In this document: one piece after another, positions 1-43,594 of the stretch
Layout: the number at the start of each line of letters is the position of its first letter
Position numbering within the stretch: position 1 is the first letter of the stretch
Sequence record: OZ035783.1
Length of the DNA: 43,594 bases
Source of the DNA: Kagunavirus PDP21P8
Reading direction: 5' to 3' (one strand)
Translations under genes and position numbers: made by a program
Notes under the pieces: generated by a model
Seen by the model: only the letters and a program-made list of their open reading frames with translations
The model's database searches: none
What the model was told of the DNA's origin: nothing

Positions 1-29
1 GTAACAACGAATATGGGCGAGGTAGAGGA

Positions 30-1280
30 ATGAGTATTCAGCTATCTGCACCCCAGGCACTGTTCCTGAATTGCGATAACAAATACAAAGCCTATGTCGG
101 CGGCTTTGGCAGCGGCAAGACATTCGTAGGCTGCCTTGACCTGCTTACGTTTATGCTCAAGCACCCCGGTACGCGCCTGGGCTACTTCGGCCCTACATAT
201 CCGGCTATCCGCGACATCTTCTACCCGACATTCGAGGAAGCTGCTAACCTGCTAGGCCTTGATGTGCTGGTTAAATCCGGCGACAAAGAAGTCGTTGTCA
301 CACGCGGTAAGACAGTGCTCGGGACGGTTATCTGCCGTTCTATGGATAATCCTGGCTCGATAGTTGGCTTCAAAATCGCGGCTGCGGTCGTCGACGAGTT
401 GGACGTATTGAGTCGCGAGAAAGCGGAGCTGGCGTGGAACAAAATCGTCGCCCGTATGCGCCTTGTTATCCCTGGCGTAACTAACCACATCTCCGTCACC
501 ACGACGCCGGAAGGGTTCAAGTTCGTCTATGCCAAGTTCAAAGAGAACCCGACGCCGAGTTACTCAATGGTGCAGGCTTCCACACACGAGAATGCACGTT
601 TCCTGCCGCCGGATTACATCAGCTCGCTCACAGAGACTTACCCGGCGCAGTTGATTAACGCGTATCTGAACGGCGAGTTCGTCAACCTGACCTCCGGCAG
701 CGTCTACTACGCGTATGACCGCCGTAAGCACCGCAGCAAAGAGACAATTCAACCGGGCGACACTCTGTACATCGGCCAGGACTTCAACGTCACGAAGAAC
801 GCCAGCGCCGTGTACGTGCAACGTAAAGACGGCTGGCACGCGGTAGCCGAGCTGAAAGGCCTGTTCGATACGCCGGACACCGTGCGTGTAATTACTGAGA
901 AGTGGAAGTCGCAAGGCCACCGCATCGTCGTTTACCCTGATGCAAGTGGTAAGAACCGCAAGACCAACTCGGCATCAATCTCAGATATTGCATTACTTCA
1001 GCAGGCCGGGTTTGATGTTCGAGCTAAATCCGCCAACCCACCGGTTAAAGACCGTGTTTTAGCCGTGAATACCGCACTGGAAAAAGGTAAGCTGTGGGTT
1101 AACGACCACTTATGCCCAGAGATAGCGAAGACGCTGGAGCAGCAGGCATATGATGATAACGGAGAGCCTGCTAAAGACGGCATCATCGACCATATGGCGG
1201 ATGCTCTCGGCTATCCTGTAGTTTACGAGATGCCAGTGGTTAAACCAGTAATCAACATCCCGGTGACTTTCGCACTTTAA
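30..1280 (+). CDS. terL: terminase large subunit
   Basis: 416 aa; Walker-A-like GGFGSGKT near N-terminus; first gene of the structural block; its ATG overlaps the stop of the terS-like frame if the window ends are joined. Confidence 0.8.
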   Translation: MSIQLSAPQALFLNCDNKYKAYVGGFGSGKTFVGCLDLLTFMLKHPGTRLGYFGPTYPAIRDIFYPTFEEAANLLGLDVLVKSGDKEVVVTRGKTVLGTVICRSMDNPGSIVGFKIAAAVVDELDVLSREKAELAWNKIVARMRLVIPGVTNHISVTTTPEGFKFVYAKFKENPTPSYSMVQASTHENARFLPPDYISSLTETYPAQLINAYLNGEFVNLTSGSVYYAYDRRKHRSKETIQPGDTLYIGQDFNVTKNASAVYVQRKDGWHAVAELKGLFDTPDTVRVITEKWKSQGHRIVVYPDASGKNRKTNSASISDIALLQQAGFDVRAKSANPPVKDRVLAVNTALEKGKLWVNDHLCPEIAKTLEQQAYDDNGEPAKDGIIDHMADALGYPVVYEMPVVKPVINIPVTFAL

Positions 1281-1292
1281 GAGGATTATTCA

Positions 1293-2765
1293 ATGTTAAC
1301 TATGAACGGTCAGAATCAGGGTGTTAAGACTAAACACCGGGAATGGCTGCATAACTTCGATAAATGGCAGAAGGTACGCCACGCGCTGGAAGGCGACCTT
1401 ATTCGCTATCTTCGAAATGTCGGGAAGAATGAGCCGGACCCGACCTACGCGGCCCAGCGCCAGGAAGAATATGAGAACGGCGCTATCTGCTACAACTTCA
1501 CTAAACGCACCCTGGCAGGGATGGTAGGTAGCGTCATGCGCAAAGACCCAGAGCAGATTATCCCGCCTGAACTGGAGTACCTGTTGCGCAATGCCGACGG
1601 TTCCGGTGTTGGTCTGTGGCAGCACGCGCAGGATACGCTGATGGAGATTGACTCGGTAGGTCGTGGCGGGTTGCTGGTGGACGCGCCGGAGACCGCCGCA
1701 GCAACGGCAGCCGAACAGAACGCGGGGCTGTTAAACCCGGTAATCGCATTCTATACCGCAGAGAACATCATCAACTGGCGATTGACTCGCGTCGGTTCGG
1801 TTAACCGTGTGACAATGGTCGTGTTGCGTGAGGTATGGGAATACTCGGAACCTGGGGCAGAGTTCGAAACAAAGTTCGGTGAGCAATACCGCGTTCTCGA
1901 TTTGATTGATGGTCGCTACCGCCAGCGCATTTACCGCTTCGATGCAGAAGGTGGCGCTCATGGTGACGTAATCGAAATATTCCCGGAACTTGGCGAACAG
2001 TTGCGCGGCAAAATCCCGTTCACGTTCATCGGGGCGAGCAACAACGACGCAACCATCGACGATGCGCCTTTGCTACCGTTGGCTGAGCTCAATATCGGAC
2101 ATTTCCGCAACAGCGCGGACAATGAGGAGTCCAGCTTCGTTGTAGGGCAGCCCACGTTGTTCATCGCCCCAGGCGAGAACATGAGCATGGAACAATGGAA
2201 AGAAGCTAACCCGCACGGTGTGCGCATGGGGTCGCGTTCAGGCCACAACATCGGCTACGGCGGCAATGCGTTTCTGGTTCAGGCGGGTGAGAACAACCTC
2301 GCAAAACAGAACATGCTGGATAAAGAGAACCAGGCCATTCAGATTGGCGCGCAGCTTATCACCCCGACGCAGCAAATCACCGCCGAATCGGCCCGCCTGC
2401 AACGTGGTGCTGATACGTCTGTTATGGCAACAATCGCACGCAACGTAAGCATGGCGTATACCGATGCGCTGCGCTGGGTAGCAGCGATGCTAGGGCTTAG
2501 TGACGGTACTGAAATCGAGTTCAAGCTGAATATGGAGTTCTTCCTGCAACCTATGACAGCTCAGGACCGCGCTCAGTGGATGGCGGACATTAACGCTGGC
2601 CTGCTGCCTGCCACCGCTTACTATGCAGCATTGCGTAAAGCAGGGGTGACTGACTGGACCGACGAGGATATTCAGAACGCTATTGAGGATGCACCGTTGC
2701 CGTTAGGTGCTGTCGCTCCGGTAGCGGGGGAGATTCCGCAGTCGGCGCAGCAACAACAGGAATAA
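1293..2765 (+). CDS. portal protein
   Basis: 490 aa ORF directly downstream of terL; size and position typical of portal; no specific motif verified. Confidence 0.65.
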   Translation: MLTMNGQNQGVKTKHREWLHNFDKWQKVRHALEGDLIRYLRNVGKNEPDPTYAAQRQEEYENGAICYNFTKRTLAGMVGSVMRKDPEQIIPPELEYLLRNADGSGVGLWQHAQDTLMEIDSVGRGGLLVDAPETAAATAAEQNAGLLNPVIAFYTAENIINWRLTRVGSVNRVTMVVLREVWEYSEPGAEFETKFGEQYRVLDLIDGRYRQRIYRFDAEGGAHGDVIEIFPELGEQLRGKIPFTFIGASNNDATIDDAPLLPLAELNIGHFRNSADNEESSFVVGQPTLFIAPGENMSMEQWKEANPHGVRMGSRSGHNIGYGGNAFLVQAGENNLAKQNMLDKENQAIQIGAQLITPTQQITAESARLQRGADTSVMATIARNVSMAYTDALRWVAAMLGLSDGTEIEFKLNMEFFLQPMTAQDRAQWMADINAGLLPATAYYAALRKAGVTDWTDEDIQNAIEDAPLPLGAVAPVAGEIPQSAQQQQE

Positions 2766-42545: not shown

Positions 42546-42702
42546 CGACAACGGGCAGGTGGTATTCCAGTTTATCGGGCGCGATGACCTCCTAATCGAC
42601 GTCTCTGATGGAACATTTGCTATTGGCGACGAGTTTGTAGAAAGAGGGGATGCGTTCCAGTATCTAAGCGATAATTACGACGTACTGGTAGATATTTGCT
42701 GA
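42502..42702 (+). CDS. small strongly acidic protein
   Basis: 66 aa, 14 Asp/Glu vs 3 Arg/Lys; SD AGAGGAGAG. Confidence 0.4.
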   Translation: MSEKLLLLMLHTLLDDNGQVVFQFIGRDDLLIDVSDGTFAIGDEFVERGDAFQYLSDNYDVLVDIC

Positions 42703-42817
42703 TGAGACTACTAATCATCCCTAACGCCCGGACCATTCCCGTAGCTAACGACCATTACGGCGGTGATGGTAAAAGAGCACCACGACATGGCATATACAAC
42801 TGATTGGAGAGCGAGAG

Positions 42818-42958
42818 ATGAAAGATATTCTGGATAAAATAAGTGACTGGATTGTAGCTAAACCATACCGGTATTGGGTCGCGCAATGGTTGCTGAACTG
42901 CGTTACGTTCTTCGCCGCATGTGTTACAATAGCCTTCGTATTTAAGGCTATCTCCTGA
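42818..42958 (+). CDS. small membrane protein (46 aa)
   Basis: SD TGGAGAG; C-terminal TM helix. Confidence 0.3.
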   Translation: MKDILDKISDWIVAKPYRYWVAQWLLNCVTFFAACVTIAFVFKAIS

Positions 42959-42963
42959 CCAAC

Positions 42964-42986
42964 AAGCCCTCTACGGAGGGCTTTTC
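42964..42986 (+). terminator. rho-independent terminator
   Basis: AGCCCTC-tacg-GAGGGCT followed by TTTT. Confidence 0.6.
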
Positions 42987-43016
42987 TGTACATCTCGCCT
43001 AATCCCCTTATATAAT
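42987..43016 (+). promoter_or_regulatory. putative promoter upstream of terS
   Basis: TGTACA-18 nt-TATAAT; followed by nested inverted repeats. Confidence 0.4.
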
Positions 43017-43081
43017 CCCTTTAGACGCGTAGGGCGCGTCTGATGCGCTCTGATGGTCAGACGCATATGCAAGGGGATTCT

Positions 43082-43594
43082 ATGAAGCTGAAACTTAAGC
43101 AGCCATCGCCTGAGGTGGTGCAAGCTGCACATGAAGAGGCTGTTAGTGCCAACCGTCGCCGTAAACGGCCGCGCGGCAAACAGAGCCTTTACCAGTCATC
43201 CCGTAATTCTGCGGCATTGTGGGACCCGGACTATTGTGACGAATTAATCGAGTTCTTCGACCGCACGTCGTGGGAACTTGTGCCTACGTCCAAGGGTGAC
43301 GAACGTCCGTTGATTCAGGATAAACCGCCATCACTGGCCCGCTTCGCCTTACACATCGGCGTCACTATCCCGATTATTAAGCTGTGGCTGCGTGAGATTC
43401 CTGCATTTGCAGAAGCCTGGGAGACAGCGCAGGCGCTGGAGGAGGCGTATTTCACTGAGACAGGCGCGGCCGGTATCTCTGCTACATTTGCTGCCGCTAA
43501 GCTGGGCCTTAGCAAAGAGAAACCGGTCGAATCCGCCGAAGAAACAGCACCGACTGAGATTATTTTCAGTGTTGCAGAGCCTGTAGGTAAAATT
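43082..43594 (+). CDS. terS: terminase small subunit-like protein (3'-truncated by window end)
   Basis: open frame from ATG 43082 to window end; PPSLARFALHIGVTIPIIKLW resembles terS DNA-binding region; frame continues at nt 1 and stops at 31-33 on the terL ATG. Confidence 0.5.
   Translation, partial: MKLKLKQPSPEVVQAAHEEAVSANRRRKRPRGKQSLYQSSRNSAALWDPDYCDELIEFFDRTSWELVPTSKGDERPLIQDKPPSLARFALHIGVTIPIIKLWLREIPAFAEAWETAQALEEAYFTETGAAGISATFAAAKLGLSKEKPVESAEETAPTEIIFSVAEPVGKI

Follow-up and report, generated by a model that had tools for sequence, protein, structure and literature searches.

A small-terminase gene divided between the two ends of a linear Kagunavirus genome record

Results

Packaging genes at the ends of the record

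The DNA analysed here (the window; the whole stretch of 43,594 nt) carries part of its packaging module at each end, all on the plus strand. At the right end, a stop-free frame of 513 nt (171 codons) runs from an ATG at 43082 to the last base, 43594, as the first-pass annotation had described. The frame, a match to phrog_3064 and the annotation of relatives identify this feature (43082..43594, +) as codons 1–171 of a 181-codon gene for the small terminase (terS), the 3′ end of which is cut by the end of the window. The missing codons are found at the left end: nt 1–30 read GTA ACA ACG AAT ATG GGC GAG GTA GAG GAA and supply VTTNMGEVEE, i.e., codons 172–181, followed by a TGA stop at 31–33; the assignment of this segment (1..33, +) is based on the tails of homologous proteins and on a gapless alignment across the junction 43594|1. 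The same continuation had been proposed from the letters alone, including the coding nature of nt 1–29 and the overlap of the TGA with the ATG at 30–32 of the large-terminase gene (terL), and the sequence bears out each of these points.

The overlap takes the form of an ATGA motif (nt 30–33), the usual terS–terL coupling, and the Shine-Dalgarno sequence of terL (GAGG; 19–22, +) lies within the 3′ portion of terS (1..33). The terL frame (30..1280, +; 416 aa) matches the Pfam families Terminase_6N (E 3.5e-21) and Terminase_6C (E 5.9e-11), and the packaging module continues with a portal protein gene at 1293..2765 (+; phrog_145 portal, E 2e-149; DUF4055). The three genes are co-oriented in the order terS–terL–portal, with terS directly upstream of terL, and the terS–terL arrangement is common to all relatives examined. 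The observation that the small-terminase gene is split across the record ends (43082..43594 plus 1..33) is confirmed.

Identity of the small terminase

When the two parts are joined, the 181-aa protein matches phrog_3064 (‘terminase’, head and packaging) over residues 1–166 (E 7.2e-73, PHROGs); it has no match among Pfam or NCBIfam models. Depositors of related genomes annotate its counterparts as terminase small subunit or DNA-packaging protein gp3. We file the product as a predicted small terminase on its position, its coupling to terL, its PHROG membership and the names used by depositors.

We also looked for more distant similarities. PDB sequence searches with the single terS sequence and with a 19-sequence profile returned chance matches only (oxidoreductase, uricase, enoyl-CoA hydratase), and TerL had no PDB match at E ≤ 0.01. 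The AlphaFold model of terS has a pLDDT of 61; a Foldseek comparison with viral models retrieved several small terminases named ‘DNA-packaging protein gp3’ at weak E values (0.01–0.1). In hhalign, a shallow terS profile aligned residues 44–150 with residues 26–134 of P22 gp3 (104 columns, 26% identity), at a weak E value of 0.34, and a BLASTP comparison of TerL with P22 gp2 gave hardly any match outside the Walker-A region (E 0.05). Bearing in mind that both of these comparisons with P22 are weak, we claim no P22-type membership. A GenBank note for the relative Shashou cites HHpred 99% to P22 gp3, which was not reproduced in the present searches.

A structured leader upstream of terS

The region preceding terS contains several candidate regulatory features. 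The first is a terminator-like hairpin (AGCCCTC-TACG-GAGGGCT, then TTTCTGT; 42965..42989, +) that would close the upstream operon; a consensus terminator scan did not call it, and it is listed from its sequence and its conservation only, an equivalent GC hairpin and T-run being found at this position in all relatives compared. Just before this hairpin ends a 46-aa ORF (MKDILDKISDWIVAKPYRYWVAQWLLNCVTFFAACVTIAFVFKAIS; 42818–42958, +) with a hydrophobic C-terminal half, the last gene of the operon that precedes terS. The second feature is a candidate sigma-70-like promoter (TGTACA-18-TATAAT; 42987..43016, +), proposed from a consensus match only (10/12 positions); distant relatives keep TATATAAT or TACAAT at this site. 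The transcript start predicted from it coincides with about the first base of a third feature: two adjacent, conserved hairpins at 43023..43066 (+), delineated by folding and covariation.

Hairpin 1 is AGACGCG-TAGGG-CGCGTCT (43023–43041) and hairpin 2 is ATGCG(C)TCTGA-TGG-TCAGACGCAT (43043–66); the minimum free energy is −21.7 kcal/mol (z −1.9). An RNAalifold consensus from eight diverse relatives comprises 17 pairs, 12 of which show compensatory double changes; both sides of the top three pairs in hairpin 2 change in three to five of the eight sequences, and these pairs are never broken. The layout of the hairpins and a YGG loop are conserved even in relatives with TerS only 51–86% identical, and the stems covary. 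An Rfam scan of 42900–43200 gave nothing credible for the hairpins. They are probably an RNA-level element. More tentatively, they may represent an undescribed cis-acting RNA element of the Guernseyvirinae, situated where the late (packaging) transcript is predicted to begin; factor-independent antitermination of the HK022 put type, stabilisation of the 5′ end, or translational control of terS are possible roles.

The start codon of terS

Downstream of a TAG stop at 43022, the terS frame contains ATGs at 43043 and 43067 in addition to that at 43082, and the annotations of relatives are divided between the first and the last of these: terS is 546 nt long in Jersey, L223 and L AB-2017 (corresponding to ATG 43082) and 585 nt in EF2-1, Shashou, Ivi, phiSD1 and K1G (ATG 43043). 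A start at 43043, giving a 194-aa protein, thus has an open frame and the longer annotations in its favour, and gene callers have also produced 194-aa proteins in several assemblies. The more distant relatives (n = 6; TerS 51–61% identical) speak against it: among those with terS 51–59% identical, two have in-frame stops, 3 nt and 15 nt upstream of the conserved ATG, and in four the extension lacks any start codon. Moreover, the 39 nt that separate 43043 from 43082 make up a covarying hairpin stem rather than showing a codon-wise pattern; a good Shine-Dalgarno sequence precedes 43082 only (AAGGGGA; 43071..43077, +; 4 nt before the ATG; kept in relatives as AAGGGGA, AGAGAGGA or GAGGAA); and a transcript that begins at the predicted position of ~43023 would leave 43043 buried in structure. 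In view of the upstream stops and missing starts in distant relatives, together with the covarying leader hairpins, 43082 is the better start, the one chosen in the first-pass annotation, and we consider 43043 unlikely. These comparative data indicate that the 194/195-aa terS of many GenBank relatives (RefSeq K1G included) is 13 codons too long.

Variants of the TerS C-terminal tail

The tail of TerS (window 43500–43594 plus 1–33) exists in at least three unrelated variants within proteins that are otherwise 80–90% identical: ...KIVTTNMGEVEE, ...VTIKVVSGER and ...IEIRFVKAVKPGVE. The two shorter tails (VTIKVVSGER and IEIRFVKAVKPGVE) are alternative modules and not truncations, and the set of variants points to an exchange of modules, with the breakpoint lying within the 3′ portion of terS. 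The ...IEIRFVKAVKPGVE tail occurs together with a TerL N-terminus of MDIPLTEPQ... in place of MSIQLSAPQ.... The C-terminal tail of TerS is the part presumed to bind TerL. The association of tail variants with different TerL N-termini may be read as an indirect hint at such binding.

Contiguity of the junction in relatives

We joined the last 600 and the first 600 bases of the window into a 1200-nt junction query. In 41 GenBank phage records this query aligns unbroken, with terminase small and large subunits annotated beneath it, and a multiple alignment with seven relatives is gapless at 43594|1, no base being missing or duplicated. Homologs of terS that are 90–98% identical end in ...KIVTTNMGEVEE, which are exactly the residues supplied by nt 1–30; the tail is identical to that of the window in six homologs, and also in six of eight public metagenomic contigs that encode an identical TerL. 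The terS annotated in relatives measures 546 or 585 nt, its end overlapping terL in an ATGA, and the closest homologs do not stop short of the window boundary; the length of terS in relatives, which had been put forward as a check on the join, supports it. Relatives carry terS uninterrupted in the same place, and the proposal that the linear window was opened inside this gene holds.

The eight contigs just mentioned (41–45 kb; TerL 100% identical) each cross the junction in a single HSP with no gap, and the junction falls at differing internal positions among them. Each has a gene directly upstream of terL with a 4-nt overlap; its product is 181 aa long (194 aa in one). A search of viral contigs located the exact 52-nt junction string in one IMG/VR contig, which is 92% identical to the window over 2.3 kb across the junction. 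We considered whether this contig derives from the same phage, and rejected the idea: it is only a 92%-identical relative.

The level of identity is similar in cultured phages. Dozens of records of Escherichia and Salmonella phages are 88–93% identical to the last kilobase of the window, and the terS–terL region is 87–93% identical to many Kagunavirus records; in the phage collection, no record exceeds about 93% identity to the window with a 995-nt query (42600–43594), a 700-nt query (1–700) or the 1200-nt junction query. At the protein level, the 416-aa TerL is present at 100% identity in 380 blocks of public assemblies. In the eight contigs described above, terL differs from that of the window at 95–112 of 1251 nucleotides, all of the differences synonymous. 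Such synonymous-only divergence would imply extreme purifying selection on terL, among sequences whose retrieval was conditioned on protein identity.

The position at which the record opens

If a 43.6-kb circle were opened at random, the break would land in a 546-nt terS ~1.3% of the time, and its position therefore needs an explanation. Six other ‘Kagunavirus’ records (OZ035738, OZ035752, OZ035758, OZ035791, OZ035812 and OZ035764; phages LM08P2, LF7074P1 (two records), LF7074P3, LM08P1 and 536P11) begin at the same homologous base as the window. In two further records, OZ035819 (LM02P1) and OZ035754 (BCH953P1), the first 29 nt are non-homologous, yet the terL ATG again occupies nt 30–32; in these two phages the terS tail is non-homologous, the TerL N-terminus is different, and terS is split between the record ends. 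The same offset is seen outside this group: the ATG at 30–32 opens a T7 gp18-type small terminase in Kayfunavirus AN24P4, a T4 gp16-type small terminase in Tequatrovirus NIC06P2, and TerL in Felixounavirus LF82P5. Altogether, a terminase-gene ATG lies at nt 30–32 in all 11 of the ENA records checked (OZ0357xx–OZ0358xx; four genera), having been read directly in five of them and inferred in six from base-for-base alignment with the window from nt 1. A terS divided between record ends occurs in at least eight Kagunavirus deposits.

The offset shared by these records leads us to the rule that a record starts 29 nt ahead of whichever terminase gene is recognised first; the break point reflects a deposit convention (terminase-gene ATG at nt 30), not a packaging end. 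This rule is deduced from the 11 records and is absent from preprint 10.1101/2023.11.22.567924, which describes a collection with matching phage names, prepared with Nextera libraries, SPAdes and Prokka, and which does not mention PhageTerm; we infer the link between the OZ0357xx–OZ0358xx records and this preprint from the style of the phage names only; the window, too, would belong to that series, with which it shares its start point. The convention is apparently anchored on the first terminase gene to be recognised by the annotation pipeline. With no Pfam or NCBIfam model for terS, this gene would be terL, and the terS that overlaps it is cut.

We envisage the following course of events. The genome would have been closed into a circle during assembly, and the linear record then begun 29 nt ahead of the terL start codon. 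Because terS ends atop the start of terL (ATGA), its last ten codons fill those 29–30 bases, and the convention divides the gene: codons 1–171 lie at 43082–43594, and codons 172–181 plus the stop at 1–33. It is very probable, in our estimation, that the window represents a complete circular genome that was opened by convention 29 nt before terL, with the splitting of terS as a consequence. The in-frame join, the identity of the tail, the synteny of the junction, the collinearity with phage K1G (see below) and the ATG-at-30 offset are direct observations.

An alternative is that the ends of the window are real physical termini, created in the 3′ end of terS by the initial (pac) cut of the terminase or by a cos cut, on which the record was then oriented. 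There is precedent for this: the P22 pac site lies within the small-terminase gene and the P22 RefSeq is numbered from pac, a pac site is predicted for the relative Shashou, and PhageTerm can output genomes that are reorganised on their termini. A cut derived from reads would not, however, keep a constant distance from a start codon, and the offset of 30 is maintained both where the first 29 bases are non-homologous (LM02P1 and BCH953P1) and in T7-like, T4-like and FelixO1-like phages, the packaging systems of which are quite different. Furthermore, the likely source study employed tagmentation libraries, and PhageTerm is unmentioned in its preprint; libraries of this type do not recover physical ends (PMC9409062). 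Finally, the position equivalent to P22 pac maps near 43403–43430 in a weak alignment, and not to nt 1. We regard physical termini at these positions as very improbable. A narrower version, in which the start shared by the six records is a pac cut derived with PhageTerm, was rejected on the same observations: the ATG at 30 behind non-homologous leads and in three unrelated genera, and the Nextera/SPAdes/Prokka workflow of the preprint.

Completeness and closure of the genome

Phage K1G (NC_027993; circular, 43,587 bp) is collinear with the window end to end: nt 1 of K1G corresponds to nt 30 of the window, and nt 43587 of K1G to nt 29. The length of the window, 43,594 bp, is inside the 40.6–45.8 kb range of its relatives, and it has no terminal direct repeat. 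The contiguity of the junction in relatives, taken with the collinearity of the entire window with K1G, leads to the conclusion that this is a complete genome linearised inside terS; completeness, already claimed in the first-pass annotation, is upheld by that collinearity, by the gapless junction and by the typical length. The window shares nucleotide similarity and gene order with members of the genus, and we assign it, as a whole genome, to the K1G/Jersey-like siphoviruses (Guernseyvirinae, Kagunavirus-like). That the contig might be incomplete or mis-closed, with bases lost or repeated where 43594 meets 1 and the frame continuing by accident (as it would at one junction in three), deserves almost no credence in the face of the gapless junction in seven GenBank relatives, eight metagenomic contigs and the IMG/VR contig, the identity to homologs of the ten residues encoded past the junction, the conserved stop and ATGA overlap, the lack of a terminal repeat and the exact closure against K1G.

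The description of the genome as ‘circularly permuted’ stands in part: the record is a rotation of a circular map, but an in-frame join does not show that virion DNA is permuted. By analogy with relatives only, we infer that headful (pac) packaging may leave the virion DNA terminally redundant and circularly permuted. PhageTerm reported Shashou as ‘pac’ and Sciku as ‘headful’ (PMC6776780, PMC6753286), and the relative fBC-Eco01 was reported to be without obvious termini; these reports, all of which concern relatives of the present phage, are compatible with headful packaging. The contiguous junction in relatives and the lack of a terminal direct repeat fit an assembly that closes on itself, and this self-closure is weak evidence for headful packaging because the pipeline may have trimmed overlaps.

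Discussion

Consequences for annotation

The split terS brings no new biology: it is ordinary and already known from relatives, and its value is practical. Gene prediction on the linear sequence will overlook terS or cut it short, both here and in a minimum of eight sister records with the same kind of opening, and nt 1–29 would look non-coding. The record is best annotated as circular, with terS = join(43082..43594,1..33), and its ends must not be taken for packaging ends.

Comparison with known systems

The closest parallel is K1G, in which terS likewise crosses the origin (join(43004..43587,1..4)) with an ATGA overlap onto terL. The two genomes share their architecture and are collinear over their whole length, with 68–95% nucleotide identity in aligned blocks that cover 31.6 of the 43.6 kb of K1G; they differ in several modules (the tail spike and some early genes). 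The K1G record begins exactly at the terL ATG and the window 29 nt earlier, and K1G annotates a longer, 195-aa terS. Eight ENA Kagunavirus records share with the window the terL ATG at nt 30–32 and a terS split between the ends; they are 87–93% identical to the window, so none of them is the same phage. Both the C-terminal tail of terS and the type of TerL in LM02P1 and BCH953P1 differ from those of the window.

The record of P22 (NC_002371), a headful packaging phage, is also opened inside the small-terminase gene, and the depositors of the window’s relatives call terS gp3-like. Gene 3 of P22 is given as join(41461..41724,1..225), and pac has been mapped to nt 4–25. A terS that crosses the origin of its record has thus already been annotated for both K1G and P22, and P22 is a textbook precedent.
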